A stretch of DNA of 64,000 nt from Euryarchaeota archaeon SM23-78 (GTDB taxonomy: Archaea; Nanobdellota; Nanobdellia; Woesearchaeales; SM23-78), in contig LSSJ01000002.1 in NCBI GenBank assembly GCA_001595785.1, positions 22,224-86,223 on the forward strand. Reading direction: 5' to 3'. Below are positions 303-29,046 of the stretch, one piece after another. Position 1 is the first letter of the stretch; each line of letters starts with the position of its first letter. Made by a program: the position numbers and the translations under genes. A model generated the notes under the pieces. The model made no database searches and was not told where the DNA came from. It worked only from the letters and a program-made list of their open reading frames with translations.

Positions 303-632
303 ATGCATGAAACAAAAATAATAAAAGATATTCTTAAGCAAATAGTAAAGAAAGCCAAGGACAAAGATGTTAAATCAGCTACCATAGAGGTTGGACAACT
401 AGCTCCTATATCAGCTAAAAGATTAGGCGCCTTAATGAAGAGAATAGTTAATTTTAAGGTTATTATCAAACCTGTCAAAGCAAGGGTTAAGTGCAGGTGT
501 GGGTATAAAGGAGCACCAAAAATAATGTTTCGAGAACATGATTTCACTTTGTTTGAATGCCCGAGGTGTAAGAAAATACCAAGAGTACTACATGGCAAGA
601 ACATTTCTCTTAAAAAGATCAATGTCCATTAA
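303..632 (+). CDS. HypA/HybF-like small zinc-finger protein (110 aa)
   Basis: Starts MHE..., which is typical of HypA. Hydrophobic core pattern followed by CxCG...CPRC zinc ribbon (CRCGYKGAP...CPRCKK). The upstream part of track ORF 132-632 is K-rich noise from an A-rich region. Confidence 0.45.
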   Translation: MHETKIIKDILKQIVKKAKDKDVKSATIEVGQLAPISAKRLGALMKRIVNFKVIIKPVKARVKCRCGYKGAPKIMFREHDFTLFECPRCKKIPRVLHGKNISLKKINVH

Positions 633-660
633 AAACAATCAAACACACCACCACATTATA

Positions 661-756
661 TTCTAAAAGATATAATATAAACATAAATCGAAAAATTTAT
701 AAATAATCTCTTCTAAAAAGATTATATTATTATATCTAAAAAGATATAATAGATAT
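661..756. repeat. Three direct copies of TCTAAAA(A)GATATAAT-like motif in the intergenic region upstream of 787
   Basis: ttctaaaagatataatat (661-678), ttctaaaaagattatattat (711-730), tctaaaaagatataatagat (735-754). TATA-like cores. Possible repeated promoter or operator sites. Confidence 0.4.
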
Positions 757-786
757 TATAAGTAGTGAGGGTTAAGGGTTTTTATA

Positions 787-1380
787 GTGATTGGCAACGA
801 ATTAGAGCAAGAAATAATTAGCCTGTACTCCAAAGATATTAGTTCTCTCTACAGCATAAACCAGATAGCTCATAAGCTAGGAAAAAAATATCCATATATC
901 AATAAAAAAGTGACCTTACTAATAAAACACAATATTTTCAAAAAAACAATAATCGGAAGATCCTATTTGTGCTCACTAAATCTTGAGAATGATGAAACCA
1001 TCTATTTACTTATACTTAATGAGATAAGGAAAAAAAAGACTGAGCTCGAATTAAATCCGCAGCTACCAAATATACTGGAATATATCAATAAAGCAAGAAG
1101 AATATTAAACCTCCAAGTAGTGTTAAAAAGCAAAGAAAGAATCCTATTTGTACTTGAAAGCAAAGGTGACCAAGAACAGTTTGAAAAAGCCATAGTAAAA
1201 GATGTGATGAGAGGATACAAAACAGAGATATACATTAAAGAAGACTTTCTAAAAGAACTCTTGAAAAACAAGGAACTACAAGAAAAACACATCATTCTGT
1301 ATGGTTATGAAAGATATTATGATTATATCAGAGAGATAGAGGACGAACTAAAACTAAGGTATTCAAAGCTAGTACCATGA
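787..1380 (+). CDS. wHTH plus degenerate minimal-nucleotidyltransferase-like protein; paralog of 31078-31701
   Basis: GTG start preceded by GAGGGT. Shares CSLNLEN and ILYGYERYY blocks with the MNT protein at 31078-31701 (CSLNLKN, ILYGAETFW) but lacks the GS...DxD catalytic motif. Its stop overlaps the start of the giant gene (ATGA at 1377-1380). Confidence 0.5.
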   Translation: MIGNELEQEIISLYSKDISSLYSINQIAHKLGKKYPYINKKVTLLIKHNIFKKTIIGRSYLCSLNLENDETIYLLILNEIRKKKTELELNPQLPNILEYINKARRILNLQVVLKSKERILFVLESKGDQEQFEKAIVKDVMRGYKTEIYIKEDFLKELLKNKELQEKHIILYGYERYYDYIREIEDELKLRYSKLVP

Positions 1381-4300
1381 AACCTGACTCCAACAACAAA
1401 ATAAAGAGAAGCATGGTTTTGTTAGTAGTATTAGTGCTAGTTCTAACAGGTCTAACCTTAGCCCTTAGTCAAAACCAAACACCCCCCAAACTCCTCTATC
1501 TCTCAATTGAAAAATCAGCCTATGAAATAGGAGAAAAAGTAACCCTGATAATAACAGCGGACCCTCTTGATGCATATGAACTCAGTATTAACTCAGAAAA
1601 TAACCTATACAAATACAGCGGAGAACTACAAAATAATATAGACTTTTACCCCAAAGAACCAGGAGAGCACACTGTTGAACTAATCAGCAAAGCAAGTCAA
1701 GAGATAGCAGACTCTCTAAGCTTCATGGTTGCACAAACAAAAGAAACCAGTAAACCCAGCACGTCCAACATTATCATAACAGACAAACAAGAATATGTAA
1801 AAGGAGAAACTGTAACAGTAGTTGTCAATGTCCCTGACTCTGAAAACTATAAGCTCTACTATGAGTACAAAGAATTTATTCATAGATACATGGAAGACAT
1901 TACCCACATCAAGTTTGTGCCAATAGATCTAGGAACCCATTATCTTGTTCTAAAAGACAAGAATAACAATGAAATCGAGAGATATGAGTTTAAGGTTATT
2001 GGAGAAGAAGATATAGAGCAAACTAAAAACTTAAAGGAAAAAGTAAAAGATATAATAGAAGAACTAGGTACAATAGAAGAATTAAGGGAAATAGAAGAAC
2101 TAAAAGAAACAAATAAATCTGTAAGCATAAAGGATAGCACAGGAAGAATCAAAGATGCAATCCTGTCCTTCTTTGATAAACCCAACATGCAAGTTACAAC
2201 CGTCAGCACATTAACCACTTTTGACATCCCACGATTTGTAGAAAGCGTAGAGATTTCTCCCACAGATAATACTATTGAAAAGATAGAGATAAAAGGACTA
2301 AGAGGTGGGAATATAAATCTTGGCCTAGAAAAAGTACATCCACTAAAAAACTCAATTCGTGGAAAAATACCCGTAAAATCGTATGCAATTGACCCTACAG
2401 GCATGAACTTCACCAATGCCACAGTAACCCAGACAGCAACAGGAACAGAGCTCTGGAAATGCAAGGAGTATAATTTTGAAACCCAGACTTGTTATGGAAC
2501 ATGGGAAAAAGTAATGACCATAATCCCAGGACAGAACTATACGTTCATACTAACACCAGAAGACCCCTTATTCACAGAGACCAGGACAGATGTTACATGC
2601 AGTTGTCAAGACACAGATACAAACCCCCCAAGAGAAATGGGAAGAGCCTCATGTAATGTTTCTTGTCCAGTAACAATTGATGTGCCTGCTGGTGCACAAA
2701 CAGGATATTTGATTAACATGAGCTATGGAGTAAGCATAAGTATCACTGGAGGGGGTGTGAATGATGTTACAAGTGCTAGCCATAGAGGTAGATTTGACAG
2801 AGACCAGACCTATGGAAATGGAAATGAAGCTACTGTAGGCTCTTCAACATCGCAAGGTTCGATTACAACAACTTGGATTAATAATTCCTTACACACATCA
2901 GGAAGCGCTTCTTTTACTGAATTAACTTGTGATAACTGGGCTGATAACTGTACCTGGTATGTCTATTTAAGCAGCACAGTAGCTTTTGACCCTCCTGGAG
3001 CATCACAGAAAACTCTAACCACAAATATAAGCTTAATAAACATGAGTTATACATGGAATTATACAGAACCAGGAAATCTATCAATCACTCTTAACTGGCC
3101 TGACGGGGATTACATAAATTATAATAACATTACATTCAACTATACCCCTGTAAGCACGGTCAATCTTACCAATTGTACTTTGTATACTAACAGAACAGGG
3201 AGCTTTATAAATGAGAGCACAGATAGCTCTCCAGATAACAATCAATCAAACTACTTTAATCTTAGCTTTGGAAGCGATGGCAATTACAAGTGGAATGTGC
3301 TTTGTTATGATAGCGATAACAACTCTGTGTGGGCACCAAATAATTATACATTTACAATAGACACAGCAGATCCAACTGTTAATCTTGAAAAACCAGAAGA
3401 CGGCAATTATACTGATAAGAGTATTGTAACTTTCTACTACAATGTCTCTGATACAAACAACATAAAAAACTGTTCATTAATAATAGATGGAGCAATAGAC
3501 CAGACAGATACTAGTGTAACAAGAGATACAAGCCAGAACTTTGCAGCTTCACTTGATAACGGGGAGCACGCATGGGCAGTGTGGTGTTATGATTTAGCAA
3601 ACAATCTTGGGAAATCAGAGAACAGAACCATAAATGTTAGTGCTCCAAGAATGATATGGAAAGATAGGTGGTATGAGACAGGAACTGCTAATTATTCAGG
3701 AACAACAGCAGATATATCCCTTGCAAATCAAACAGATGGAGTCCAGAACCAAGCTTATTATAGTATTCCTGGTTCATCAACAATAACTCTTGTAAGTGCT
3801 TTCTCACCATATATAGGTGGAGACGGAGCATATATTGGCAGTGGCTCAACAGTCACGTTCAGAGCAGCTTTTGCAGCAGCTCAAAATAATGGTTATGTAA
3901 CCTGGTATCTTTATTCACAACATGCTAATGGTTCTCAAACTCAGATATGTAGTTTTGGAGACAACTCTTCAGGCGGTTCCCAAGTAGCTGTTATCACAGA
4001 AGAAACCTGCATTACCTCTTCTGACCATAAATTACTAGGGACAGACAGGCTAGAACTTAAAATCTATGTTTATAATTCACATCCAACTCAGAACAGAGCT
4101 GTAACACATCTTTTTGACCATGTTAACTCATATGTTAATATTGAAAACTTTATTAGCCTAGGACATCTAGAAGCAAACTTGATTGCTCCTGGTGTGGACC
4201 TCAATATAAGCCAGAACCAGACTTATAATCATACTTGTAACATCACCTGCGTCGGAGGAACTTGCCTGAATGTAAGTGTGTGGGCTCAGTACAACTCAAC

Positions 4301-5129
4301 CAGTCCGTCCAGCATATCCTGGACCAACATAAGCTCAACAGGCAACCTTGTGCTTAATGGTAGTGAAACTAATCCTCATAACATAGGAAATATTAACCAG
4401 ACAAGCACCAATACAACCTTTATTATTAAAGGAGACCAACCCTCAACAAATTATGTAAGGTGCTATGCAGAGTCAAAGTACTCAAGTGCTAGCAGCACTG
4501 ATTATAAGAAGATAATGGTAATAGATACAGAGCCACCGGAAATAAATATTTTAACTCCCTCAGACAACAACTATACTAAGAACAGCACCATAATATTCTA
4601 CTTCAATGTATCTGACCCCTCGGACATAAAGAACTGTCAGTTCATCCTTAACGGAACAGTAAATGATACCAAGAATTCAAGCGAAATAACTAATAATGCT
4701 GTCAACAACTTCACCATAAGTGGCTTTACCACAGGGATTTATAACTGGACTGTTAACTGTACAGATGTGTGGAACAACACAGGAAGAGCCACACCTCAAA
4801 GAACTTTGTACGTAGACCAAGCCTATCCCTGGATTAATCTTAACTATCCAGGGCAATGGGATGTGGTTGCTTATGAGACTGTTAACTTTAACTGGACAGC
4901 AAATGATAATTATAATAATATTAACCTAACATGTGATTTATATGTAAATGGTGCTCTTAATCAGTCCGGAATCCAATCTCCAGAAGGAGTCCCAACTAAC
5001 TGGACAGTCACTAATTTCCCTATTGGAAATCATACCTGGTATGTGAACTGCTCTGACCAAGCAGGCAACTGGAACTGGAGCGTGACCAGAAACTTCACTA
5101 TAGTTGATACCTCGCAACAATCAGATTAA
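1377..5129 (+). CDS. Giant sequon-rich surface protein, N-terminal part (signal peptide, conserved N-module, HYR/Ig-like repeats); likely the 5' portion of one gene continued by 5104-10719
   Basis: Signal/TM MVLLVVLVLVLTGLTLALS. ELWKCK...GTWEKVM..IPGQNYTF.LTPEDP module shared with 32345 and 56638 genes. Repeats with D.T.P...F.Y..SD...NC.L..NG....NNFT....G.Y.W.V.C.D..GN. Very many N-x-S/T sequons. Ends TAA at 5127-5129 in mid-repeat. Confidence 0.75.
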   Translation: MKPDSNNKIKRSMVLLVVLVLVLTGLTLALSQNQTPPKLLYLSIEKSAYEIGEKVTLIITADPLDAYELSINSENNLYKYSGELQNNIDFYPKEPGEHTVELISKASQEIADSLSFMVAQTKETSKPSTSNIIITDKQEYVKGETVTVVVNVPDSENYKLYYEYKEFIHRYMEDITHIKFVPIDLGTHYLVLKDKNNNEIERYEFKVIGEEDIEQTKNLKEKVKDIIEELGTIEELREIEELKETNKSVSIKDSTGRIKDAILSFFDKPNMQVTTVSTLTTFDIPRFVESVEISPTDNTIEKIEIKGLRGGNINLGLEKVHPLKNSIRGKIPVKSYAIDPTGMNFTNATVTQTATGTELWKCKEYNFETQTCYGTWEKVMTIIPGQNYTFILTPEDPLFTETRTDVTCSCQDTDTNPPREMGRASCNVSCPVTIDVPAGAQTGYLINMSYGVSISITGGGVNDVTSASHRGRFDRDQTYGNGNEATVGSSTSQGSITTTWINNSLHTSGSASFTELTCDNWADNCTWYVYLSSTVAFDPPGASQKTLTTNISLINMSYTWNYTEPGNLSITLNWPDGDYINYNNITFNYTPVSTVNLTNCTLYTNRTGSFINESTDSSPDNNQSNYFNLSFGSDGNYKWNVLCYDSDNNSVWAPNNYTFTIDTADPTVNLEKPEDGNYTDKSIVTFYYNVSDTNNIKNCSLIIDGAIDQTDTSVTRDTSQNFAASLDNGEHAWAVWCYDLANNLGKSENRTINVSAPRMIWKDRWYETGTANYSGTTADISLANQTDGVQNQAYYSIPGSSTITLVSAFSPYIGGDGAYIGSGSTVTFRAAFAAAQNNGYVTWYLYSQHANGSQTQICSFGDNSSGGSQVAVITEETCITSSDHKLLGTDRLELKIYVYNSHPTQNRAVTHLFDHVNSYVNIENFISLGHLEANLIAPGVDLNISQNQTYNHTCNITCVGGTCLNVSVWAQYNSTSPSSISWTNISSTGNLVLNGSETNPHNIGNINQTSTNTTFIIKGDQPSTNYVRCYAESKYSSASSTDYKKIMVIDTEPPEINILTPSDNNYTKNSTIIFYFNVSDPSDIKNCQFILNGTVNDTKNSSEITNNAVNNFTISGFTTGIYNWTVNCTDVWNNTGRATPQRTLYVDQAYPWINLNYPGQWDVVAYETVNFNWTANDNYNNINLTCDLYVNGALNQSGIQSPEGVPTNWTVTNFPIGNHTWYVNCSDQAGNWNWSVTRNFTIVDTSQQSD

Positions 5130-8100
5130 CAATTTCACTGTGAGCAACCTTGCAGAAGGCCTGCATAACTGGACAGTGTCTTGCCTAGATACAGGTAATC
5201 TTAGTGACATGGCAGCCTGGAGAAACTTCACAGTAGATCTAACAAACCCAAAAACTTTCCTAAACTATCCAAATCCTGACCAGACCTTGACAAGCGGTGA
5301 TGTGCAGTTTAATTATACATCCACAGATAACATGGCCCTAACCCTGAGCTGCGAGTTATTTATTGACAGTAATTCTGAGAGTAATGACACAGCAAACAAT
5401 GCAACACCAGAGCTGGTAAACATAAATAACATAGCAGATGGGCTACACGATTGGAATGTTACTTGTACTGACTATGCCGGACGCATAAATAATAGTGAAA
5501 TAAGAAATTTTACTATTAATGAAACTCCAATAGTAAACCTAGGAGTACCAGGTCCCTGGAGTATTAACAATGAAAACATTACTTTCACCTACACTCCAAG
5601 TGATAATGACGGATTTATTAACTGTACTATCTATCTTGATGGCAGTCCAAACGCGACCAACACCTCGATTAATAATGGAGTGCTTAATAATTTCACAATA
5701 AAGAACATTCCAGAAGGAAACCACACCTGGTACATAGGCTGCTATGATAATGGAACATATAATAATTATCAAATTTCAACAATAAGAAACTTCACAGTTG
5801 ACACCACAAACCCAACCCTAGTGCTTAACTCTCCAGACCCTGATGAACTGATACCCAGCGCTCAGGTTGACTTTAACTGGACAGCAAATGATACCCTTGA
5901 CAACCAACTAGACTGCGACTTATACATACAAGAAAGTTATAATCAGACAGTGCTATCAGATGCAGGCAACTATACAATTGTAAGTCTGAATTTCACCAAT
6001 GGCAGGTATAACTGGAGTGTTATCTGCTATGATGATGCAAACAACTATAATGCAAGCGCAACCAGATGGTTCAATGTAAGTGTCCCCCCAAGTGTTAACC
6101 TAACCTATCCTGACCCTAATGAACACTTTAACTATGATGACCTATTATTTGAGTACATACCCAGTGCAAATACCAACATAACCAATTGTACCTTATTCAT
6201 AGATGGAGTGGAGAATGCAACCAACTCAAGTATCACCCTTGACACTTATAATTATATCTGGGTGAACTTCACATCCAGCTGGGAAGGAAAGCATAACTGG
6301 ACAGTCAGATGCATAGATGCTGACGACTTAGAAGGATGGGGAACCACACGTGACTTCTATCTAGACTTTACAGAGCCAAACATACAGCTTAACGACCCAG
6401 GTGATAACACTACAGTAACAAGAAACAGGGTTGTATTTAACTTTACAGCAACAGACAGCTTTTCAAATTATACAATATGTAATGTGACTGTTAGTGGTGT
6501 GCCTGAAGGAACCAACCTTAATGCAACAAATAGCACTCCAAGACTCTTTAACAAAACCTTTCCAGACGGAAACTACTCATGGTATGTCACCTGCTATGAT
6601 ATTGCAGGGAACTACAATGTTAGTGAGACATGGAACTTCACAATAATAGCGCCGCCAAACGTAACCCTGATAAAACCAGCAACTGGCAACTTCACTAATG
6701 AGACCATTGTAACTCTTACTTACTGGCCTCAGGATGATTATGTAATACCCAACTGTTCCCTGCATCTGAACGGAAGCTATTATACAAATGATGACAGTAT
6801 AAACACTAATCAAAACAATTCATTTGTCCTTAATGGCCTAGCAGAGGGATACTATAACTGGACTGTTTACTGTAGAGACCAAGATAATAATGTTTATGCA
6901 CCTCCTGAATGGAACTTCACAATAGATAGAACACCGCCCGGTCTTACCTTACTCTTACCAGTTCCCGGAGCCCTGCTCACCACAGAGGATGTAGTATTTA
7001 ATTTCTCAGTAACAGACAACCTTGACCTTGATATATACTGCAACTTAACTCTTAATGGAAGTGTTAATGAGAGCAACATCCCGCTAAGCAATAACTCTTA
7101 CTACAACACCACTATTAATAATCTGAAAGACGGGTTTTATCTCTGGAATGTAACTTGCTGGGACACTGCAGAGAACAAGAACTATTCAGAGACCAGGAAC
7201 TTTACTGTAGAGTCACCTCCAACAATAGCGCTTGGAAATCCTCCTCAGAATTACAGAACCGATAATACAAGTATTAACTTTTACTTTACTCCCACAGACA
7301 ATTCAGGAAACATCAGCAACTGTACCTTGATTCTTAATGGACAGGCTAACGAGACTCTGGATAATGTGACAGAAGGAGCACAGAACAACATAACAGTGCA
7401 TAATCTGAATGATGGCACATATAACTGGACTGTTAATTGTACAGACCCAAATGGAAATATAGGTACGAATACCAGTGTTAAAACCTTTTATGTAGATTTA
7501 ACAGGACCTAACATCACTTTGTACTTCCCAGAGCCAGAACAAATCTTTGGTTATGATGATATAACCTTTAACTGGACAGCAACAGACTTTAACAACACCA
7601 ACATAACATGTAATCTAACCCTTGACACTAATGGAACAGTAGCCACTGTTACTAATCTAAGTGGTTCAAAGTTTATTACAACAATAAACGGGCTTCCTTG
7701 GGGGGACCATTACTGGAATGTAACTTGTTTTGATGATCTGTGGAATAACCAGAGCAGTGAAACCAGAAACTTTACTATTACAAGGCCTGATCTTACCATC
7801 AATACTGGTAATATCACCTTTAACAACACAAATCCTGATGAAAATGATACTATACTAATAAATGCTACAATTTATAATCTTGGCGGAGCAGATGCAAATG
7901 ATACTTTAATACAATTTTGGGATGGAGAGCCAGGCAGTGGAGGAGTATGGATAGCTAATAGAACAAGAGATATCCCCGGCAACACTAGCAGATGGGTTAA
8001 TGCAACCTGGAACATAAGCTTAGGCTTGCACACAATCTGGATTGTTATAGACCCAAATGATGTTCTTGATGAGTTAAATGAGAGTAATAATAATGCTACC

Positions 8101-10719
8101 AGAAACATCAGTATTCTAAGAGTATTCTTTAATTCTCCTCCAAACCAAACAATGACCAATGATACAACGCCAGAGATTAACTTTACAATGCAAGACTTTA
8201 CAGGAGGAACCATAAATTATACCATCTATGTTGATGGAATCCCTAATGGTCAAACAGGAAGCTCAACAGATAATGTGAGCGTAGCCATAAACCTAAGCGT
8301 GCTCAGTGATGGTTATCATAACATTACTGTTCAAGCCACAGATGAGCTTGGTAGAGATAAGAACTCAAGCATCCTTGTGCTCATAATTGATTCTCTGGCG
8401 CCTGTGGTTAACTTTGAAACCCAGAACCTAACCTGGTTTAACACCAGCAACCCAAATATATATTTCAATATAACAGACCAGGTAGATAGTAATATCAACT
8501 ACTCATTATATGTAAATGGAACCTTTCAGAAAGCCAGTAACATATCAAATGCGACCACAACCAATGAAACCATAGGGCCTTTAGCTGACGCTAACTACAC
8601 CATAACCATACAAGCAACAGATAATGCAAATAACTCTCAGAATTACTCAATAATAATCTATGTTGATACAAAAGCACCAGTAATAAACCTAACCTATCCT
8701 GTGGATGGAGCTAACTTTACAACCAATAGTGTTTATCTTAACTTCACAGCAACAGACAACATGGATCCCTCCTTGACGTGTAATCTGACTCTTGATGGTC
8801 AGGTTAATAGAACCAGGTTTGAAGCTAATAATGGAGAAGAAACAGCAACCCTAGTAAATGGCTTGAGTGAAGGAACCCATTACTGGAATGTTACTTGCTG
8901 GGACAATGCAAGTAACAGGAATTATAGTGAAACAAGAAGCTTTAATATATTCAATGCTCCAATAGTAAACTTAACCTTTCCTCCTAATGGGAATGTAACC
9001 AACAACCCCAACCAAACCTTCTACTTCAACGTGAGCGATGAAACAGGCATCTTTAACTGCTCACTCATATTAAACGGAGCAATCAACACCACCAAACCAG
9101 GAAGCCAAATAATAAACAACAACATAAACAACTTCACAGTCAACAACCTTGATGGTTTCTATAACTGGAGCGTAAGGTGTTATGATAATACATCATTCAA
9201 AGTTCAAGGTGATTCTGAGACCTGGAATATAACCATAGATCTTTATCCTCCTTACCCAAACATAACAACTGCTAATTATTCATGGTTTAACACAACCAAT
9301 CCATCTATAGACTTCATAATAACAGATAACTTTGCAAATCCAATTAATTATACTTTCTATGTGAATGGAAGCGCAAATGCTAGTGGTACTATTGGTAATA
9401 ATACCCCAAGCAGTGCCAACCTCCAAGACTTAAATGACAATGCAAGCTTTAGAATAGTACTCCAGGCAACCGACGAAGTAGGTAACTCTGCTAATAGCAC
9501 AAGCATAATAATCTATGTTGATACTGAGAGACCAAGCATCAACCTAACAATTCCAATCCCTGGAGAGAGTTTCAACACAACAATTGTGCAGTTCAACTTC
9601 ACAGCAACAGATAACATGGCAAGCTACTTGATGTGTAACTTGACCATTAGTAATGGGATGTATGAGTACAACATCAATGCCACAAACAGTACAATGCAAA
9701 CTGTGAATAAGTCAGGGTTTGAGTCAGGACTCTACTATTGGAATGTGACTTGTATAGATCTTGCTGGCAACAGAAACACAAGCCCAACCTGGAACTTCAC
9801 AGTACTAGCGCCTGACCTTATAATAACAAGCGGAAATATATCCTTTAATGACACCTCGCCAGAAGAAGGCAAGAATATCACCATATTTGCAAATATATAC
9901 AACAACGGAGGAAGCCCTGCTTATAATGTAACTGTGCAGTTCTGGCAAGGAGACCCTGACCTGGGAGGAACCCAGATTAATGGTAACCAAACAATAAGCA
10001 CTCTTGTTAATGGAGAGAATTTCACTCTTAATATTACTTATAACACAAGCATAGGAGGCAATAATATCTTTGTAGTTGTTGACCCGCCCTTAGCAACCAA
10101 TGGAAGTATTATAGAGGAGAATGAGAGTAATAACAAGGCAAATAATTCTTTTAGTGTAAGCCTATATCATGTATATGCAGGAAATACCACAGAAGTAATA
10201 GATATGGAAAAGCAGAGTATAAATATATCCTTGTTTCAATGGAATGTTAGTAATGCAACTGGTAGCAATATATTTGTAACTGATATAGAGGCTAATCCTG
10301 ACTTTACAAATCTGCAGGCCATAAGCAGGGACACAGGCAACAACTCAGTAGGCAATGACTTTGAAGAGATAGACGCTGCTTTTGGCTCAACCAATTATTC
10401 TGATTCAATTAATTACACCTATACTTTGAATGGAAATCCAAGAGCAACCAAGAGTTACAAAGTATTTACCATGACCATAAACAATGTTCCAATAGTCAAT
10501 AGCACAACTACGCGTAGTTTCCAGACAGGCATACTTTGGGATAAAGGGGATGGAAATAATCAGTATAATGGAACCCAGGACTTGTTGTTTATAACAGAGA
10601 TTAACAAGAGCAAGCAAGGAAGCCAAGGAGTGTATGATTTTGAGATAAAAGTGCCTGCTCTGCTAAGGAATTATAATGCTCCAGGTTCAAGTGTGGTGTT
10701 TTACACTGAGATAAAATGA
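5104..10719 (+). CDS. Giant surface protein, C-terminal part (HYR/Ig-like repeats, two CARDB-like domains, conserved C-terminal domain); no signal peptide, likely continuation of 1377-5129 after a frameshift
   Basis: Opens with TTG immediately after an in-frame TAG and starts inside a repeat unit (NNFTVSNLAEGLHNWTVSCLD). CARDB-like segments (…LGGADANDTLIQFWDGEP… VIDPNDVLDELNESNNNAT; …VVVDPPLATNGSIIEENESNN). C-terminus YDFEIKVP...VVFYTEIK is homologous to the C-termini of 32345-37537 and of the small secreted family. Confidence 0.7.
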   Translation: MIPRNNQINNFTVSNLAEGLHNWTVSCLDTGNLSDMAAWRNFTVDLTNPKTFLNYPNPDQTLTSGDVQFNYTSTDNMALTLSCELFIDSNSESNDTANNATPELVNINNIADGLHDWNVTCTDYAGRINNSEIRNFTINETPIVNLGVPGPWSINNENITFTYTPSDNDGFINCTIYLDGSPNATNTSINNGVLNNFTIKNIPEGNHTWYIGCYDNGTYNNYQISTIRNFTVDTTNPTLVLNSPDPDELIPSAQVDFNWTANDTLDNQLDCDLYIQESYNQTVLSDAGNYTIVSLNFTNGRYNWSVICYDDANNYNASATRWFNVSVPPSVNLTYPDPNEHFNYDDLLFEYIPSANTNITNCTLFIDGVENATNSSITLDTYNYIWVNFTSSWEGKHNWTVRCIDADDLEGWGTTRDFYLDFTEPNIQLNDPGDNTTVTRNRVVFNFTATDSFSNYTICNVTVSGVPEGTNLNATNSTPRLFNKTFPDGNYSWYVTCYDIAGNYNVSETWNFTIIAPPNVTLIKPATGNFTNETIVTLTYWPQDDYVIPNCSLHLNGSYYTNDDSINTNQNNSFVLNGLAEGYYNWTVYCRDQDNNVYAPPEWNFTIDRTPPGLTLLLPVPGALLTTEDVVFNFSVTDNLDLDIYCNLTLNGSVNESNIPLSNNSYYNTTINNLKDGFYLWNVTCWDTAENKNYSETRNFTVESPPTIALGNPPQNYRTDNTSINFYFTPTDNSGNISNCTLILNGQANETLDNVTEGAQNNITVHNLNDGTYNWTVNCTDPNGNIGTNTSVKTFYVDLTGPNITLYFPEPEQIFGYDDITFNWTATDFNNTNITCNLTLDTNGTVATVTNLSGSKFITTINGLPWGDHYWNVTCFDDLWNNQSSETRNFTITRPDLTINTGNITFNNTNPDENDTILINATIYNLGGADANDTLIQFWDGEPGSGGVWIANRTRDIPGNTSRWVNATWNISLGLHTIWIVIDPNDVLDELNESNNNATRNISILRVFFNSPPNQTMTNDTTPEINFTMQDFTGGTINYTIYVDGIPNGQTGSSTDNVSVAINLSVLSDGYHNITVQATDELGRDKNSSILVLIIDSLAPVVNFETQNLTWFNTSNPNIYFNITDQVDSNINYSLYVNGTFQKASNISNATTTNETIGPLADANYTITIQATDNANNSQNYSIIIYVDTKAPVINLTYPVDGANFTTNSVYLNFTATDNMDPSLTCNLTLDGQVNRTRFEANNGEETATLVNGLSEGTHYWNVTCWDNASNRNYSETRSFNIFNAPIVNLTFPPNGNVTNNPNQTFYFNVSDETGIFNCSLILNGAINTTKPGSQIINNNINNFTVNNLDGFYNWSVRCYDNTSFKVQGDSETWNITIDLYPPYPNITTANYSWFNTTNPSIDFIITDNFANPINYTFYVNGSANASGTIGNNTPSSANLQDLNDNASFRIVLQATDEVGNSANSTSIIIYVDTERPSINLTIPIPGESFNTTIVQFNFTATDNMASYLMCNLTISNGMYEYNINATNSTMQTVNKSGFESGLYYWNVTCIDLAGNRNTSPTWNFTVLAPDLIITSGNISFNDTSPEEGKNITIFANIYNNGGSPAYNVTVQFWQGDPDLGGTQINGNQTISTLVNGENFTLNITYNTSIGGNNIFVVVDPPLATNGSIIEENESNNKANNSFSVSLYHVYAGNTTEVIDMEKQSINISLFQWNVSNATGSNIFVTDIEANPDFTNLQAISRDTGNNSVGNDFEEIDAAFGSTNYSDSINYTYTLNGNPRATKSYKVFTMTINNVPIVNSTTTRSFQTGILWDKGDGNNQYNGTQDLLFITEINKSKQGSQGVYDFEIKVPALLRNYNAPGSSVVFYTEIK

Positions 10720-10899
10720 TGATTAAAAGAATAATAATTAAAATACCAGTTGTTAAGAATTATAAAAATAACAATAAACTCAAAAATGGAAATTATCCAG
10801 AAAGTTATGATTTTATCCTAAATTTAAACTGTTGATAATTTGATAACAATATTTAAATAGATAGAAATCAAGGAGATAAGATGAAAAGAGGTGTGAAAA

Positions 10900-11943
10900 A
10901 TGGGAGAGGATGCAAAAGATAAAGAAGAGAATGTGTTCATCACAAAAGATGAGAATAAGATAAGCAATCTCTGGGAATTAAGGGATTTTCTTAGCAAAAC
11001 GTCTGATGAAATTTTTACTCGTTATGTTAATGAAGAAAAGAATGATTTTGAGAGTTGGATAAGACACTCTTTAAAAAATCAGGAACTTGCAGACCTTGTA
11101 AGAAAAAAGAAAACCAGAGAAGAGACTGTCCAGATAATTGATTACTTCTTGACCAAGCAAGAACTTGAGAACCCAGAGTCAGAGTTAAGAGAAGAAGAAA
11201 TACCTGAGGTAGAACGAATCAGAATTGGAGTGCCTGGCTTTGACCAACTAATAACTGAGGGCATCCCAAAAGGAAGTTCTGTACTCATAAGCGGAGGCCC
11301 AGGAACTGGCAAGACAACCTTTTGTTTACAAATAATAAAAGAAGCAACTGAAAAAGGAGAAAAATGCCTATACTTAACCTTTGAAGAAGCCCCATTAAAG
11401 CTTAAGCAGCACATGAAGAGTTATGGCTGGGATCCTATCCAGCTTGAAAAAGAAGGCTCATTGATAATAAAAAAGATGCGGCCCTTTGACCTAAGCAGGT
11501 CTGTCGAGGCACTGCTGGCCAAGGCTAGTGGCGAGCTCACAATTGAACTCGATGAAATAGAAGGAGTCATTCCAAAGGATTTTAAGCCTGACAGGATTGT
11601 TCTTGACTCATTATCATCAGTCGCTGCTGCTTTTATTGGCAGAGAAGAAGGTTACAGGATTTATATTGAGCAGTTATTCACTCTTTTTAAGAGTATAGGA
11701 GCAACCTCTTTTCTTATAACAGAAATAGAACAAGAAACATCTAGGTATAGCAGGAGTGGTATTGAGGAATTCCTAGCAGATGCTGTTTTTGTTTTCTACA
11801 ACATTAGAAAAAAGAATGTAAGACTTAATGCCTTGGAAATCCTCAAAATAAGAGGAACCCTTCATCAGAAAAAAATAGTTCCATTTAAGATAATCTCAAA
11901 TCAAGGAATAGTTGTTTACCCACAGGAAGAGGTTTTTACTTAA
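10900..11943 (+). CDS. KaiC-like RecA-superfamily ATPase (single domain) with ~100-aa N-terminal extension
   Basis: Walker A GGPGTGKTTFCLQ. KaiC-like blocks KCLYLTFEE..YGWD, RIVLDSLSS, ATSFLITEIEQE, LADAVFVFY...LKIRG. GAGGTG 8 nt upstream of the ATG. The N-terminal extension shares a module with the C-terminus of 37893-38822. Confidence 0.8.
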   Translation: MGEDAKDKEENVFITKDENKISNLWELRDFLSKTSDEIFTRYVNEEKNDFESWIRHSLKNQELADLVRKKKTREETVQIIDYFLTKQELENPESELREEEIPEVERIRIGVPGFDQLITEGIPKGSSVLISGGPGTGKTTFCLQIIKEATEKGEKCLYLTFEEAPLKLKQHMKSYGWDPIQLEKEGSLIIKKMRPFDLSRSVEALLAKASGELTIELDEIEGVIPKDFKPDRIVLDSLSSVAAAFIGREEGYRIYIEQLFTLFKSIGATSFLITEIEQETSRYSRSGIEEFLADAVFVFYNIRKKNVRLNALEILKIRGTLHQKKIVPFKIISNQGIVVYPQEEVFT

Positions 11944-11951
11944 TCAGTCAA

Positions 11952-14900
11952 ATGTTAAATAAAAAGTTTTTAAACAAAAATATATGTTATCACATCATTA
12001 TTTTAGTTTTAGGAATACCTCTTCTTTTTCCTCTGATAAATGCATTAACAGGTAACTACTCAACAACATCTCCTTTTAGCTGTGGAGCTAATTGTAATTT
12101 GGGGTATGAGCTTTCTGGTCATAACGCAACTTACTGTTACAACAATCCTGTTGAATGCTACAACACAATAGACACTTGTAGAGATGGAACTAATGATGGA
12201 TTTGAATTTGTTAACAACATATTCGTAACAGACCTTAATGATACCAACTTTATAGGAGGCCACACAGTAAATGTAACCGTAGAGTTTGACTGTGACAGTG
12301 ACGGTGATACAATAACTATTTCGTATCATAATGGAACCAGTTTCAGGGTAATACAAGATGACACTTGCTCTGTTGGTGCTTTGGTAAACAAATCATATAG
12401 CTTTGTCCTGGATGAAAATGGAGGAAACCACACAATTAGGGCAGTAATAGTTTATAACGGCGGTACCAACATGATTTGTGGATATAACTATGATACTACT
12501 TTTTCTGACACTGATGATGTTACTTTTTATGTAATTCAAGGACCAGATACTGAGAACCCAAAAGTAAGTGGTGTTAGTCCAAGCCCAGGAACTTCTTATA
12601 ATCAGAACTATGGTTTAATTATACCAATATCTGCTAATATTACTGATGATAGAAATATTAGTATTGTACAGACTCTTGTGGAATGGGATTCATATACTCA
12701 TAGTATCAATCTCGGACATATTAGTGGAAACCTTTATTCAGGAAACTTCACCAATATTACTGAAGTGACCCTTTACAATGTGACCATAATAGCAAATGAT
12801 AGCTCTAATAACATGAACAATACTGAAACCACTTATTTTACAATAAACTCTACAACTAACATTACTATTGTTTCACCTAGCAACAGGCAGGTGCTTCCTT
12901 ATGGAGACATAAACCTCAGATTCACAATTGACTCTGGTTATAACACAGATAAAGCAAGGTACTCTATAGATGCTGGAGCAAACATAACTTTAAATGCAAA
13001 TGACAAATTAAGAGTAAGCTTTATCCAATCAGACCAGAATGCTACAATTGGAGAAGCTGATAATGTATATGACAATCTTTCAATGTCTTTCATACCAACC
13101 GAAAATATGAGCATTGAGTTAGTGGCTATTAGTATTAAAAGGAACGACTCAGGAACTCCTAATTCTCAACTACAGGTAAGAACTGACAGTGGAGGCAGTC
13201 CTTCAAATACAATTCTTGCTACGGGTAGTATTACTAACACCTCTGTTACAGCAAACTACTCCTTTGTAAATATAACCCTTAACACCACGATTAATCTTGC
13301 TATAAATACAACTTACTGGTTGTTTCTGACTCCAAATGGTTCAGCAACTAATTTTTATACTTGGGAGAAAAGCAATGACGGCTTATATGCAAATGGTAAT
13401 TACAGTAATAACAACAGTCTTGACTTGCTGTTCAGAGTGTATGACAGATACAAATATAATACAACTCTTACAAATGTTTCAAAAGGAACACATAAGATAT
13501 TGATCTATGCTAATAGTACAAACATGAGCTCAATAAAATCCCAACTTATCCAGTTTGAAGTTGACAATAGATCACCTAGCATAGGAGCAGTAACATATGT
13601 GCCAAACACAACAGCAGATATGGATCCAAGTATAATGATAAATGTAAGCGTGAATGTGAGTGATGAAGTAGGAATTGTACAAGTACTGCTTCAATATAAG
13701 GAGAGCAATGAAAGCGCTTATCTGAATAATAGTATGCAGAATATAAGCGGAGTATATAAAGGGAATTTTACACCCAACTTTGAGAATAATTGGACTTTTA
13801 GAATCTATGCAAAAGACAGTTCCAACAATACAGCTTATTCAAGTGCAAATATAATAGGGGTTTTATATGAGTACTCTTGGAACCGAACTCCTTCAAGTTT
13901 TAACACAATATCATCTTTCCTTAACACCAACACGACTGTTGGCAATATAACCATTAATAACACGGCAGACATTAACCTGACTATTAACATTTCAAAAACA
14001 ATTTCAACAGTGCCCAGCTTATACTTTAACAACACAAAAGGAAGTCTGGTATTTAATGTGGATTCTGGTAGCACAGCCACTATTAGCGTGACAGCCACGG
14101 GTCAGAGTATTGAATCAGAACAAGAAGTAGGGATAAGAATCGATCCAAGCCAGCCTAGTGCAACACCAGATTACTTACTAACTAACTTTACTTTTATATC
14201 GTATGTATCAGGACCCTACCTTGATATTGATATCACTGAATACGACTCCACAGTAATCCAAGGACAAAAAAGAGTGAAATTAACAGCAACTATCATAAAT
14301 GTAGGTAATGAAAGTGCAAATAATGTTAATGCGCACTGGACCTTGCCAATAGGATGGAATGCTAAGACTAATTTTACAGCCAATTATTCATCTCTTGGAG
14401 TTGGCCAACAAGTAAGCTTTACAAGATATGTTGATATTGGTTCAAGTGCAAGCACAGGCACACAGACCATTAGAATAGATATAAATTGTTCAGAAGGAAA
14501 AAACAGTACTGATTCCAAGAGCGTGAGCGTGAGCAGTAGTGGGGGACAAACTCCAGGCATCATCACCCCAGGCGGGGGTGGAGGTGGTGGAGGTATTATT
14601 TCTGCAGAAATAAGTAAACTAGACATTAGAATTTTGGAGGAAATAGAGATTGAAAGGGGTACCAATTACACCCTGACTGGAACTCTAAAAAATATTGGTG
14701 AATATGATTTAGAAAATTTAAGTATTATCCTTAGTGGATTTCCAATAATACATTACAACATAAAACCTAGTATTATTGACAAACTAAAAGTAAATGATAC
14801 CCAGTTATTTACATTGTTCCTTAATGTGCCTGAATACTTTGGAGGTGGAAAACACGAGACCATCCTTGATGTAAAAACTCTTGCAGGAAATGCGTGGAAA

Positions 14901-15809
14901 GAGTTCAGCAAGAAGATAATTATTATTGTTATCACAGAGGACAAGAAGCAGGCACTTGAATGTGTAGAAAAAACCCAACTAAAGATAGATGAATTACAAA
15001 GTATCGGCTTGAATACTGTAAAATTAAACCAAAAATTAGATGATGCAAAAAGAAATTATAATATCAAGAATTATGCAGATGCAAATAACCTTTGTAAACA
15101 AACATTAAGAGATGCTGAGCTTGCTTTTGATTTAAATGACAGAATAGCCTCTATTAAAAAGGCTTATGCTGAGCTAGAAACAGATATCCCAGAAATAAAG
15201 GAGTTAATCCAACTTATGCAAGAGGCCTTTGAGAGAGAAGATTTTGTCTTGGCGAACACCAGAGCAGAGCAAGCAGAGTTTCTGCTCAGCCTCAAAGAAA
15301 AAGAGATCCAGCAAACCCTACCGTATAAATGGGGGTTGGTAAGAAAGTATTGGGTACAAATAACAGGTGTTTTAATAATGTTAATAATAATAGGAATCTT
15401 TGCTTATTCGTCAACAAATCTTAAGGCAGTAACAAAAAGAATCAAGAACTTGGAAAAACACCATGGCGCGGTGCATAACAAAATAAAGGAAGCGCAACAT
15501 AAGTATTTTGTTAAGAAAGCCTTACCTTCAAGACTTTATAAAAAAGAAATGGAGCATCACAGAAACAGCCTAGCAGATATTGAGAAGAAAAAGCATGAAT
15601 TAAAGATTAAGAGGTTAAAAATAATTAGTGGACGCAGACTTAAAGACTTGGAAAAAACAAGACAAGAAGCTGATGAAAGTAAGAAAGAACTTCACAGGAA
15701 ATATTATGTTCACAAGACAATTGATAAGCAGACTTTTCACAAGCTTAAACTGGGTTTTGATAAAATCATACAAGATATTGAAAAAAGGATTGAGTTGAAA
15801 AAGAAGTAA
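11952..15809 (+). CDS. Large sequon-rich surface protein with C-terminal TM helix and cytoplasmic coiled-coil tail
   Basis: N-terminal hydrophobic segment. Long Asn/Thr/Ser-rich ectodomain with a G8 stretch. TM GVLIMLIIIGIFAYS near the C-terminus followed by a charged coiled-coil tail. 8-nt gap after the KaiC-like gene suggests an operon. Confidence 0.65.
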   Translation: MLNKKFLNKNICYHIIILVLGIPLLFPLINALTGNYSTTSPFSCGANCNLGYELSGHNATYCYNNPVECYNTIDTCRDGTNDGFEFVNNIFVTDLNDTNFIGGHTVNVTVEFDCDSDGDTITISYHNGTSFRVIQDDTCSVGALVNKSYSFVLDENGGNHTIRAVIVYNGGTNMICGYNYDTTFSDTDDVTFYVIQGPDTENPKVSGVSPSPGTSYNQNYGLIIPISANITDDRNISIVQTLVEWDSYTHSINLGHISGNLYSGNFTNITEVTLYNVTIIANDSSNNMNNTETTYFTINSTTNITIVSPSNRQVLPYGDINLRFTIDSGYNTDKARYSIDAGANITLNANDKLRVSFIQSDQNATIGEADNVYDNLSMSFIPTENMSIELVAISIKRNDSGTPNSQLQVRTDSGGSPSNTILATGSITNTSVTANYSFVNITLNTTINLAINTTYWLFLTPNGSATNFYTWEKSNDGLYANGNYSNNNSLDLLFRVYDRYKYNTTLTNVSKGTHKILIYANSTNMSSIKSQLIQFEVDNRSPSIGAVTYVPNTTADMDPSIMINVSVNVSDEVGIVQVLLQYKESNESAYLNNSMQNISGVYKGNFTPNFENNWTFRIYAKDSSNNTAYSSANIIGVLYEYSWNRTPSSFNTISSFLNTNTTVGNITINNTADINLTINISKTISTVPSLYFNNTKGSLVFNVDSGSTATISVTATGQSIESEQEVGIRIDPSQPSATPDYLLTNFTFISYVSGPYLDIDITEYDSTVIQGQKRVKLTATIINVGNESANNVNAHWTLPIGWNAKTNFTANYSSLGVGQQVSFTRYVDIGSSASTGTQTIRIDINCSEGKNSTDSKSVSVSSSGGQTPGIITPGGGGGGGGIISAEISKLDIRILEEIEIERGTNYTLTGTLKNIGEYDLENLSIILSGFPIIHYNIKPSIIDKLKVNDTQLFTLFLNVPEYFGGGKHETILDVKTLAGNAWKEFSKKIIIIVITEDKKQALECVEKTQLKIDELQSIGLNTVKLNQKLDDAKRNYNIKNYADANNLCKQTLRDAELAFDLNDRIASIKKAYAELETDIPEIKELIQLMQEAFEREDFVLANTRAEQAEFLLSLKEKEIQQTLPYKWGLVRKYWVQITGVLIMLIIIGIFAYSSTNLKAVTKRIKNLEKHHGAVHNKIKEAQHKYFVKKALPSRLYKKEMEHHRNSLADIEKKKHELKIKRLKIISGRRLKDLEKTRQEADESKKELHRKYYVHKTIDKQTFHKLKLGFDKIIQDIEKRIELKKK

Positions 15810-15832
15810 TAAAATAAAAAAAGAGGTGAAGA

Positions 15833-17188
15833 GTGAAAGCAATATATATCCTTAAAATACTACTTAAAATATTACTAACCTTAATATTACTAAACTTGGC
15901 AGTAAATCTTTCTATAGCAAAAGAAGAACAAGAACTAAGAACAGAGCTTCTGAAATTAAGTCAGGTAAAGGAGGAAATGATAGCTGCAGGTATGGGCACA
16001 ACCAGAATTGATGATTTAATTACAGAAGGGTTTATACACTTTAATAACAAGAACTATGAAAAGACAAAGGAAATAGTATCCTCTGTTTATGAGTTAAGAG
16101 ATGCTGCTTTCAATATAAAAGAGGAGCTCAAGTTTGTCAACCAGCTTTATCTTGATATTAGAGAGAGAAACATCAGCCTAGGTGATATGAGTATCACCAA
16201 GCTTGAATGGGATTTGGGTTATGTTGAACGAGAGATGGAAAAAGAGAACTATGAAGAGTCATTAGAAATACTGGCAAGGGTAAAAAAAGAATTTCTCGAT
16301 ATTATTTGGAAAGAGTATGACTATCTTAATGAATCTGTTTCAGTAATTGAAGAAAAAATAGGTTTGTTAGGGCTAAGCAAGGCAAGAATAACTACCTTAA
16401 AGAGTCTGTTATCTGAGGCCTTGGAAACAGGAAAACTAAAGGAACTAGAGATTATTAAACAAGAAACAATGGATTTGAATAAGGGCCTGGCTTATTATGA
16501 AGAAATAAAACCATTTATCCCTGTTTTGGAAAGTAAAAACCTTTCTGCGCAGAGGATAAAAGATGAACTCACAGCTGCTGAACTTGAACTTAACTTTGCT
16601 GATTATGAGTCTAGCCTTAGCAGGCTTGAAAGTCTTAGAACTTTGGCAGAGAAAGCTATTCTGCTTGATGAAGAGATTAATGAACTTGAGAAAAAGATTG
16701 TTGATGAAAAAGTCAAGCAAGGATCAAATTCTTATTTAAAAGAAGCAGAAATCATTTTAAAAGAAGCAAAACATGAATTGATTGTTGGAAATTATGAAGG
16801 AGCAGAACAAAAATTGGTTAGTGCAAGAACAAATTTTGAGAGTTTAAAAGCAGAGTTTCTTGTTGAAAGAGCAGGCGCCACTAGTTTTGGTATCAATTTA
16901 AAAGAGTTTGTAAGAAAAAACTGGCTATATATAGTGCTTGTAATCTTAGTAATCCTCTTAGGGCTTAAGTTAACCTCCGGGGCATGGTCTTATGGTTTAG
17001 GAAAAAAAAGAATTGCAAGACTAGAGAAAGAGCTCAAGGTTAATGAGAATATGATTCAGAACCTTCAAAAAGACTATTTTGTTCACAAGAAAATGGCAAG
17101 AGAGAGTTATGATGAGGCGTATGAGTCATTGCAGGAGAAGATAATGAAAATAAAAGATAGGTTATCCCAATTAAATAAGAAGGTTTAA
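15833..17188 (+). CDS. Coiled-coil membrane protein (signal peptide, long helical ectodomain, C-terminal TM, charged tail)
   Basis: GTG start with AGAGGTGA upstream. N-terminal hydrophobic segment. TM LYIVLVILVILLGLKL. Tail organisation resembles the tail of 11952-15809. Confidence 0.55.
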   Translation: MKAIYILKILLKILLTLILLNLAVNLSIAKEEQELRTELLKLSQVKEEMIAAGMGTTRIDDLITEGFIHFNNKNYEKTKEIVSSVYELRDAAFNIKEELKFVNQLYLDIRERNISLGDMSITKLEWDLGYVEREMEKENYEESLEILARVKKEFLDIIWKEYDYLNESVSVIEEKIGLLGLSKARITTLKSLLSEALETGKLKELEIIKQETMDLNKGLAYYEEIKPFIPVLESKNLSAQRIKDELTAAELELNFADYESSLSRLESLRTLAEKAILLDEEINELEKKIVDEKVKQGSNSYLKEAEIILKEAKHELIVGNYEGAEQKLVSARTNFESLKAEFLVERAGATSFGINLKEFVRKNWLYIVLVILVILLGLKLTSGAWSYGLGKKRIARLEKELKVNENMIQNLQKDYFVHKKMARESYDEAYESLQEKIMKIKDRLSQLNKKV

Positions 17189-17236
17189 AAAAGGAAAGAA
17201 TAACTATATTTATTACCTCTGCAGAAGGTAAAAAAA

Positions 17237-17764
17237 ATGGATTTAATAGAAGAAGTAAAGAACAAGCAGATTGTTCTGGTAGTTCTTCCAAAAACCCAGT
17301 ACACAAATAAACTAATAGAAGTAGTCAAAGCAGTTGATGTTGTCTCAAACAAGGTTTGCTATGTATGCCTAAATAAGCCTTATAACAGCATAATAGATAA
17401 TCTTAAAGCCAACAACTTGGACTTGGATAAGTACTTCTTTATTGATGTGCTTACGAGTACTGTGAAAACTCCTGAGCCGACTGATAACTGCGAGTTTGTA
17501 CAGTCACCTAGTGCTTTGACTGATATAAGCCTTGCATTTACAAAAGCAGTGCAGGAAATGAACTGCAACAATGTATTGTTCGATGCAATCTCAACACTTA
17601 CAATCTACCAAGACATAGGAGAGATTATCAAGTTCACCCAAAACCTGATGACCAAGGCAAGAGTGAGCGGAGTGAAATCAGTATATATAGCCTTAAAAGA
17701 AGATAGCGACGAATTAGTGAAGGATCTTACCATGTTTGTTGACGGGGTTGTTGAGTTAGGATGA
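17237..17764 (+). CDS. Walker-A-less KaiC/RecA-fold domain protein (pseudo-ATPase); paralog of 23717-24262
   Basis: KVCYVCLNKPY...DNLKANNLDLD aligns to KaiC KCLYLTFEE...GWD. VLFDAISTL aligns to RIVLDSLSS. DGVVEL aligns to the KaiC DGVI.L block. No GxxGxGK[TS] P-loop. Sits immediately upstream of the Ser/Thr kinase. Confidence 0.55.
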   Translation: MDLIEEVKNKQIVLVVLPKTQYTNKLIEVVKAVDVVSNKVCYVCLNKPYNSIIDNLKANNLDLDKYFFIDVLTSTVKTPEPTDNCEFVQSPSALTDISLAFTKAVQEMNCNNVLFDAISTLTIYQDIGEIIKFTQNLMTKARVSGVKSVYIALKEDSDELVKDLTMFVDGVVELG

Positions 17765-17788
17765 GCTACATTCTACTAATTTTATGCT

Positions 17789-17909
17789 GAAATCTTGTCC
17801 GTCGGCGCCATTGTTTGCATTAGCTACTTTGTTTTTGTAGCTATGCAAAGGCCCGGCGAAGCTTTGTGAGCAGTTTAATAGCGAACAAAGCGGAGTAGGA
17901 CAAGATTTC
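17789..17909. repeat. MITE-like structured repeat, copy 1
   Basis: Perfect 12-bp terminal inverted repeats gaaatcttgtcc / ggacaagatttc. Internal palindrome tgcattagctac...gtagctatgcaa. Shares module gcgaa.caaagc.gagtagg with the copies at 37.6 and 44.1 kb. Confidence 0.55.
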
Positions 17910-17993
17910 AATAATGATTTTATAGCAAGGTTTTTATAGTTTAAATACCCTTCTCTTTTGGAAGGGGTGGGAATACAGGGAAAGGATGCAACA

Positions 17994-27834: not shown

Positions 27835-27858
27835 TCTGCCTATAATTTTTTACTATGT

Positions 27859-29046
27859 TTAAGACAATACTTTTTCAAAAACAAAACGTTTATTTTGTAC
27901 TATGTTTCCACTTATAATACTTAAGGTAGTGTCGCCATTTTGGTCAAAACTCCAAGTGCCAAAAAGGCCATCATAATCTTTTATTTTGGATACTTCTTCT
28001 AAAATTTTTGCTCTGTCTTTCACTCCCGCTCTTTCAATTGCAAGCAAAGCAACTTTAGCAGCTTCATAACCAAAAGATGACACGGTTCCTGGTTCTTTGT
28101 TGTATCTTACCCTGTAACCTTCAATAAATTCTTTTCCTTTTTCAGTTAATTTTTCTAATTCTGCGGGTGGCACTCCAAAAACAGTTAAGTATGTTCCTTC
28201 TGTAGCATCCCCTCCTAAATCAAGAAATGCCTGTTCCATAATACCATCCGGACCCATTAGTTTTGCATCTAAGCCCAGTTCCTTGATCCCTTTTACTAAA
28301 GGAATTGCTCCGTTCATGGTTACACCACCAAAGTAAATTAAATCAGGGTTCTGGTCTTTGATTGCATTCAATTTTTCCTTGGCATTTTCACTGTTGATTG
28401 ATTCATGACCTAATACAGCTAAGCCTATTTCCAAGGCTTCTTCTTCAAAAAGGTCAGCAATTCCCATACCATAGGCTTCGCCATCATCAAATATATAAAC
28501 ACTCCCAAATCCTAATTCCTTAGCCCAAACAGCCCCTACTGGCCCCTGTACTGCATCTGTTGGACAAACTCTGAAATAATTACGCATTCCTGTTGGATAA
28601 AATATGCCTGGTTCTCCAGGCAGGAAACCTACCATTGTCAGGCCTGGCCAAGTATTTACCGGACTTATCTGAACAAGTCCTCCCTGATTATTTATTGGAA
28701 TACTAACCTTTGCCGCGCCACTATTATATGTTCCCAGATAAACCATTACATTGGGGTCAGCAACAGCTCTCCTAGCAATACCTTCCTCTATCTCGGGTTG
28801 CCATTGTCCGTTTTCATCTCCATCATCCTCTACTACCAACTCTATCTTATAACCTACAACAGTGTAATCAACTTCTTCCAAAGCCAATCTGACTCCATTC
28901 ACAATATCATGACCTGCTTGCATTACTCTCATAGGATTGCTTGTTACAATCTTTATTGTCTTTTGTTCTGACTCTGCACACCCTAAAAAAACGGTGGAAA
29001 ACATTAACCCTACTAAAATAATCCACAACATACTTTTTATTTTCAT
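27859..29046 (-). CDS. Type-1 periplasmic-binding-protein fold, LivJ/LivK-like (branched-chain amino acid type) solute-binding lipoprotein
   Basis: Signal peptide with LGC lipobox-like site. PBP1 signatures across the length (GYKIELVVEDD, NPDLIYFGG, DGIMEQAF). 4-nt overlap with the upstream PAS gene. Confidence 0.75.
   Translation of the reverse strand: MKIKSMLWIILVGLMFSTVFLGCAESEQKTIKIVTSNPMRVMQAGHDIVNGVRLALEEVDYTVVGYKIELVVEDDGDENGQWQPEIEEGIARRAVADPNVMVYLGTYNSGAAKVSIPINNQGGLVQISPVNTWPGLTMVGFLPGEPGIFYPTGMRNYFRVCPTDAVQGPVGAVWAKELGFGSVYIFDDGEAYGMGIADLFEEEALEIGLAVLGHESINSENAKEKLNAIKDQNPDLIYFGGVTMNGAIPLVKGIKELGLDAKLMGPDGIMEQAFLDLGGDATEGTYLTVFGVPPAELEKLTEKGKEFIEGYRVRYNKEPGTVSSFGYEAAKVALLAIERAGVKDRAKILEEVSKIKDYDGLFGTWSFDQNGDTTLSIISGNIVQNKRFVFEKVLS

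Follow-up and report, generated by a model that had tools for sequence, protein, structure and literature searches.

Two adjacent open reading frames as halves of one giant surface-protein gene in a Woesearchaeota-like archaeon, probably separated by a recent 149-nucleotide deletion

The 64,000-nucleotide stretch of archaeal DNA analysed here (Euryarchaeota archaeon SM23-78, assembly GCA_001595785.1; contig LSSJ01000002.1, positions 22,224 to 86,223, forward strand; hereafter the window) contains two adjacent open reading frames (ORFs), ORF1 and ORF2, that lie in different frames and belong to a giant surface-protein gene. Comparison with near-identical environmental contigs indicates that together they make up one 3,163-residue gene split in two, from which 149 nucleotides are absent at the point where the frame changes. 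We consider it likely that the window carries a genuine, recent, strain-level loss-of-function deletion allele, which arose independently of homology and coexists with the intact allele in a natural population. It is an ordinary gene-disrupting deletion allele, and no new mechanism is implied. The elements of the disrupted gene are the following (Ig-like, immunoglobulin-like; SNP, single-nucleotide polymorphism):

1377 to 5129, plus strand: ORF1, the 5' fragment of the disrupted gene, 1250 amino acids, with a signal/anchor peptide, the family N-module and Ig-like domains.
5104 to 10719, plus strand: ORF2, the 3' fragment of the disrupted gene, 1871 amino acids, in the +1 frame, with native coding from 5116.
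5115 to 5116, plus strand: deletion junction, with 149 nucleotides of the intact allele absent between these bases.
5127 to 5129, plus strand: premature stop codon TAA, a product of the frame shift caused by the deletion.
5116 to 5235, plus strand: surviving C-terminal half of the damaged Ig-like domain, 40 amino acids (NNQINNFTV...WRNFTV).
5541, plus strand: synonymous SNP, CTA here and CTG in the intact allele, with the same A in contig L050.

ORF1 consists of 1246 native residues, four out-of-frame residues (QQSD) and the premature stop; its end in frame 0 reads ...RNFTIVDTSQQSD, with the TAA at 5127-5129. ORF2 begins with a TTG at 5104, immediately 3' of a TAG at 5101-5103, and overlaps ORF1 by 26 nucleotides (5104-5129, frames 0 and +1); its first four codons (LIPR) come from out-of-frame translation of the left flank of the junction. 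The N-terminus of ORF1 is charged and then hydrophobic for about 19 residues, giving a signal/anchor segment at residues ~8-33. ORF2 contains about 20 Ig-like domains, two CARDB domains and the family C-terminal domain; it has no signal peptide, and no hydrophobic 19-mer was detected anywhere in it. The coordinates and frames given for both ORFs in a first-pass annotation of the window all hold, as does its assignment of a signal peptide to ORF1 and of none to ORF2. Most of both ORFs is made up of Ig-like repeat units of ~95 amino acids with a W-x-V-x-C anchor. In consecutive units these anchors are spaced 92-97 amino acids (276-291 nucleotides) apart; the spacing across the junction, from 5037 to 5170, is only 133 nucleotides (~44 amino acids), and therefore about half a unit is missing.

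The exact extent of the loss is given by contigs carrying the intact allele, which were retrieved via the exact products of a KaiC-like gene (10900-11943) and of the gene upstream of ORF1 (787-1380). These contigs, L041/L044/L049 (ENA ERZ27275860, k141_1037213) and L042 (JGI 3300027901 Ga0209427_10003731), match the window at 99.98-99.99% identity on either side of the junction and carry the intact allele as one called gene of 3163 amino acids (3151 in L042, in which a later start is called). The window equals the intact allele minus L041 positions 4068-4216, which is 149 nucleotides, or 3 x 49 + 2. The DNA of ORF1 is identical to L041 positions 329-4067; identity of the left flank to the intact allele extends up to 5115 (...GATACCTCGC, ending ACCTCGC), and that of the right flank resumes at 5116 (AACAATCAG...). 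The deleted segment encodes PTVTLAFPPPNHYNDSSTIIFKYNASDNNGFQNCTLYLDGLENYTNSTIY, the first half of one Ig-like domain, and the residue sum fits: 1246 + 50 + 1867 = 3163. Apart from the deletion, the SNP at 5541 alone distinguishes the gene from its intact allele, and the 1,867 codons downstream of the junction are still open and show no other defect, which together point to a very recent deletion. The first-pass annotation had proposed a single gene of ~3100 amino acids disrupted by a deletion or frameshift, a proposal borne out by the intact allele, 99.98% identical, and by single-ORF orthologs; it was right that part of a repeat unit is missing, but its figure of ~55 amino acids is replaced by an exact loss of 149 nucleotides, or ~50 amino acids.

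A scan for related loci, made with one genome per species, gave 36, all of them in metagenome-assembled genomes (MAGs) of Woesearchaeota, Nanoarchaeota or other DPANN type. The best ortholog locus, L001, is a single ORF (9917-19414, 3165 amino acids): ORF1 residues 6-1246 are colinear with its residues 29-1248 at 58% identity, ORF2 residues 5-1871 align with its residues 1299-3165 at 66% identity and with zero net gap, and exactly 50 of its residues are unmatched between the two alignments. A metagenome contig, L037, is closer than L001 (63% identity for ORF1, 73% for ORF2) and has one open frame of at least 3099 amino acids. Three-way alignment of the DNA of the window, L001 and L037 gives one clean 149-nucleotide gap, which falls in the window; since L001 and L037 are both single ORFs containing the segment, the intact state is ancestral. 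Comparison with orthologous loci was a check named in the first-pass annotation, and it finds both orthologs uninterrupted and both fragments colinear with one ORF. Across 40 related loci and the window's own paralog, a detected C-terminal domain always lies in one ORF with the N-core where the gene has an N-core, and ORF1/ORF2 is the only split. Some of the related MAGs in the scan are labelled 'uncultured Methanosarcinales', and the taxonomic labels of the lineage are inconsistent. A word-indexed protein search with ORF1, a low-complexity query, returned three distant matches only and missed the near-identical proteins. A literature search on the sample and assembly accessions found nothing.

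The intact gene is predicted to encode a secreted protein of 3,163 residues, rich in N-glycosylation sequons and with many Ig-like and CARDB domains, in a Woesearchaeota-like (DPANN) archaeon. The 149-base-pair loss, not a multiple of three, takes away the initial ~50 residues of one Ig-like domain and shifts the frame, with translation expected to terminate four codons past the junction. The gene would be expected to yield an N-terminal fragment of 1,250 residues, without the ~20 distal domains or the conserved C-terminal domain, and no surface protein would come from the remaining 5.6 kb, since ORF2 has no export signal. The arrangement resembles pseudogenes or truncation alleles formed by out-of-frame deletion in prokaryotic genomes and MAGs, in which neighbouring ORFs that differ in frame correspond colinearly to one ortholog ORF, the second ORF has no export signal and the missing length does not divide by three. 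Unlike the usual deletion pseudogene, this one is very recent: a single synonymous SNP is all that separates the rest of the gene from the intact allele. Environmental populations also seem to contain the disrupted allele side by side with the intact one and with a further deletion allele.

No microhomology is shared between the two breakpoints, TCGC|CAACAGT and TTTAT|AACAATC. The left one coincides with a domain boundary and the right one lies in the middle of a domain, so that they are not in repeat register. The ortholog alignment had pointed to an AACA/AACAAC microhomology, but in the intact allele this match is one base out of place and cannot yield the observed junction. No hairpin bridges the breakpoints when the intact allele is folded as single-stranded DNA (z-score 0.73), no homopolymer, short tandem tract or other simple-sequence tract lies at 5090-5135, and a sigma-70 promoter/terminator scan around the junction found no terminator, the sigma-70 model being uninformative for an archaeon. 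Absence of homology at the breakpoints and their out-of-register positions argue for an illegitimate, homology-independent deletion. This conflicts with the earlier suggestion of a repeat-mediated deletion, as does the identity of the repeat units at the DNA level, which is only 60-80%. Collapse of a repeat array during assembly, also suggested earlier, is unlikely because no exact word of at least 16 nucleotides links the junction to elsewhere in the window; the longest nearby match is 15 nucleotides and does not lie at the junction.

A second, different deletion in the same gene is carried by contig L050 (JGI 3300028897 Ga0309836_1031940), which is otherwise 100% identical to the window over 5285-11913 (~6.4 kb). 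This deletion is of 102 nucleotides, in frame, corresponding to window 6600-6701 (L050 1312-1315); it removes 34 amino acids (DIAGNY...GNFTN) and is flanked by a 4-nucleotide ATGA microhomology. Contigs of ERZ27275891 and of Logan SRR5248174 begin inside the 102-nucleotide segment, at 6622/6623, and it is conceivable that the sample with contig ends at 5110 (see below) and 6622/6623 holds a further structural allele spanning 5111-6621. We tentatively raise the possibility, which we hold to be doubtful, that deletions independent of homology recur within the giant gene and make it a hotspot in a natural Woesearchaeota-like population, with full-length, 102-nucleotide-shortened and 149-nucleotide-truncated alleles coexisting among near-clonal genomes.

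The strongest competing explanation of the junction is a technical one, in which the 149-nucleotide loss results from local misassembly, end-trimming by a scaffolder, an amplification chimera or a long-read consensus error and the organism carries only the intact gene; we regard it as unlikely, though it deserves weight. A real junction is favoured because a de Bruijn assembler, with no shared k-mer or overlap there for its graph to follow, would need junction-containing reads. The window is marked as a distinct haplotype by the linked synonymous SNP at 5541, 425 nucleotides from the junction and common to L050, and by an Asp/Glu difference at 15044; the microhomology-flanked deletion of L050, from another data set, likewise speaks against an artefact. 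Contigs JAHWID010000012.1 (NCBI GCA_019322785.1) and k141_2799530 (ENA ERZ27275891) both end at window position 5110, 5 nucleotides before the junction. We estimate the chance of a contig end at most 5 nucleotides from the junction at roughly 1%, for ~8 distinct ends in the 9.3-kb gene. In ERZ27275891 the intact paralog of the gene is assembled whole on a 22.6-kb contig; local heterogeneity therefore explains the break at 5110 better than low coverage does.

Several points weigh on the other side. The junction is known from assembled sequence, and the deletion allele was not found in public assemblies by look-ups of its exact products (two starts of ORF1 and three of ORF2, including TTG read as M). 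The assemblies with contig ends at 5110 probably go back to a single read set and are perhaps one observation, and a simple two-allele branch of an assembly graph accounts only in part for ends at 5110 rather than 5115. Amplification chimeras or gap-closing by a scaffolder can make short homology-free deletions. A technical origin would also accommodate a difficult spot at which other assemblies break in nearly the same place, the fragmentation of the giant gene in several assemblies, the record of the deletion allele nowhere else and the recovery of the intact allele by two pipelines.

Reversible alteration of repeat number, by a phase-variable switch or by recombination between repeats, is very improbable. 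The gene is a tandem Ig-like array of a surface protein, bacterial surface-protein genes of the tandem-array class are often phase-variable, and two different deletion alleles are seen; yet the junction has no homopolymer or short tandem tract, the units are only 60-80% identical in DNA, one breakpoint is at a domain boundary and the other in mid-domain, and there is no second copy of the lost sequence from which to restore it. The phase-variable expression mooted in the first-pass annotation is disfavoured on the same grounds, with neither a simple-sequence tract nor an invertible element present and the 149-nucleotide loss being irreversible. Equally improbable is a functional arrangement in which programmed +1 ribosomal frameshifting or termination-reinitiation joins or co-expresses ORF1 and ORF2, as the 26-nucleotide overlap in frames 0/+1 (5104-5129) and the fully open ORF2 might invite, because the orthologs and the near-identical allele are contiguous with 149 extra nucleotides and the split is not conserved, a shifted product would still be short of half an Ig-like domain (~50 residues), the overlap GATACCTCGCAACAATCAGATTAA contains no recognisable slippery motif, and ORF2 has no signal peptide.

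The protein belongs to a family with two further members in the window.

32345 to 37537, plus strand: intact paralog, 1730 amino acids, with N-module and C-terminal domain in a single ORF.
56638 to 64000, plus strand: third family paralog, with the N-module at 56755-57792 and a frame still open at the window end.

The N-modules of ORF1 and of the intact paralog are 32% identical (expect value, E, 3e-34), and the C-terminal domain of ORF2 is 48% identical to that of the paralog over 308 amino acids (E 4e-85); these matches agree with the first-pass annotation, which had placed the family N-module on ORF1 and the family C-terminal domain on ORF2 and had pointed to the paralog as joining the two in one ORF. 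The N-module of the third paralog is 30% identical to that of ORF1, and at least 2454 of its codons are open. Pfam domains in the two ORFs are Big_13, Big_3_3, Big_7 and CARDB; in ORF2, Big_13 is matched with E 7.8e-36 (123.1 bits, cut-off 27), CARDB with E 1.2e-14 (54.7 bits, cut-off 22.7) and Big_3_3 with E 7.8e-14 (52.1 bits, cut-off 27). The product of the giant gene is an adhesin-like Big_13/CARDB multidomain protein, sharing its Pfam domains in ORF2 with Big_13, Big_3_3 and CARDB adhesin-like proteins of bacteria and archaea; it differs from these in its extreme density of N-x-S/T sequons (9 per 100 amino acids in ORF2) and in terminal modules found only in Woesearchaeota/Nanoarchaeota-type MAGs. 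The family C-terminal domain (10117-10716, the last 200 amino acids of ORF2; also 36935-37534) has no Pfam match. Its AlphaFold2 model is mostly beta, with a mean predicted local distance difference test score (pLDDT) of 79.6, and has no significant match in the PDB by Foldseek (best E 0.42); the domain, at the protein's presumed distal tip, may represent a fold not yet described.

The SPEARE giant surface proteins of Nanohaloarchaeota are 8,880-9,409 amino acids long, contain a VirB4/TraG-like ATPase domain inside the giant protein and differ in the length of their Ig-like arrays, one protein being without a 529-amino-acid stretch of the other (PMC10266531). The protein described here is similar in being a very large secreted DPANN-type protein with an N-terminal signal and long Ig-like arrays (PMC10266531). 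Unlike SPEARE proteins, it is much shorter, at 3,163 amino acids, and possesses a conserved N-module of its own as well as a C-terminal domain without a Pfam match; no ATPase family, the feature that marks SPEARE-type proteins, is among the Pfam matches of ORF1 and ORF2.

The genes that flank the disrupted gene in the window include the following.

787 to 1380, plus strand: upstream gene of unknown function, 197 amino acids, whose stop overlaps the ATG of the giant gene.
10900 to 11943, plus strand: KaiC-like ATPase gene, downstream of the giant gene and separate from it.
11952 to 15809, plus strand: surface-type protein of 1285 amino acids with an NPCBM_assoc domain.
17237 to 17764, plus strand: second KaiC/DUF7504-like protein.
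17958 to 20411, plus strand: Ser/Thr protein kinase of 817 amino acids.

The overlap of stop and ATG suggests that the gene at 787-1380 is co-transcribed with the giant gene. At the other end, a 39-amino-acid ORF (MMIKRIIIKIPVV..., 10716-10835, plus strand) has a start overlapping the giant gene's stop; it has been called as a gene and is exactly conserved in 7 public contigs. Contigs L041 and L042 end within window 15013-15077, inside the gene for the 1285-amino-acid protein, and position 15044 is GAT (Asp) here and GAG (Glu) in L041; this region, too, may vary between strains. A 1323-amino-acid DUF87 (HerA/VirB4-like) ATPase is encoded ~3 kb upstream of the first base of the window (L044 3643-7614). 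On the minus strand, 25747-30380 encodes a Cache/HAMP histidine kinase, a periplasmic-binding-protein homolog and a multi-PAS protein, a sensory repertoire that is rich for an organism with DPANN-labelled relatives.

For annotation, ORF1 and ORF2 are to be treated as one disrupted gene, that is, a pseudogene or truncation allele, and not as two proteins; the intact sequence of 3,163 amino acids is obtainable from the near-identical contigs. Near-clonal environmental populations of DPANN type appear to differ almost only by short deletions in a giant surface-protein gene. If reads confirm the junction, selection on the protein would be variable or relaxed, as one would expect of a structure that faces viruses or host cells. 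Were the gene a deletion hotspot, these alleles would amount to surface variation at the level of the population, possibly driven by viruses or by interactions with partner cells.

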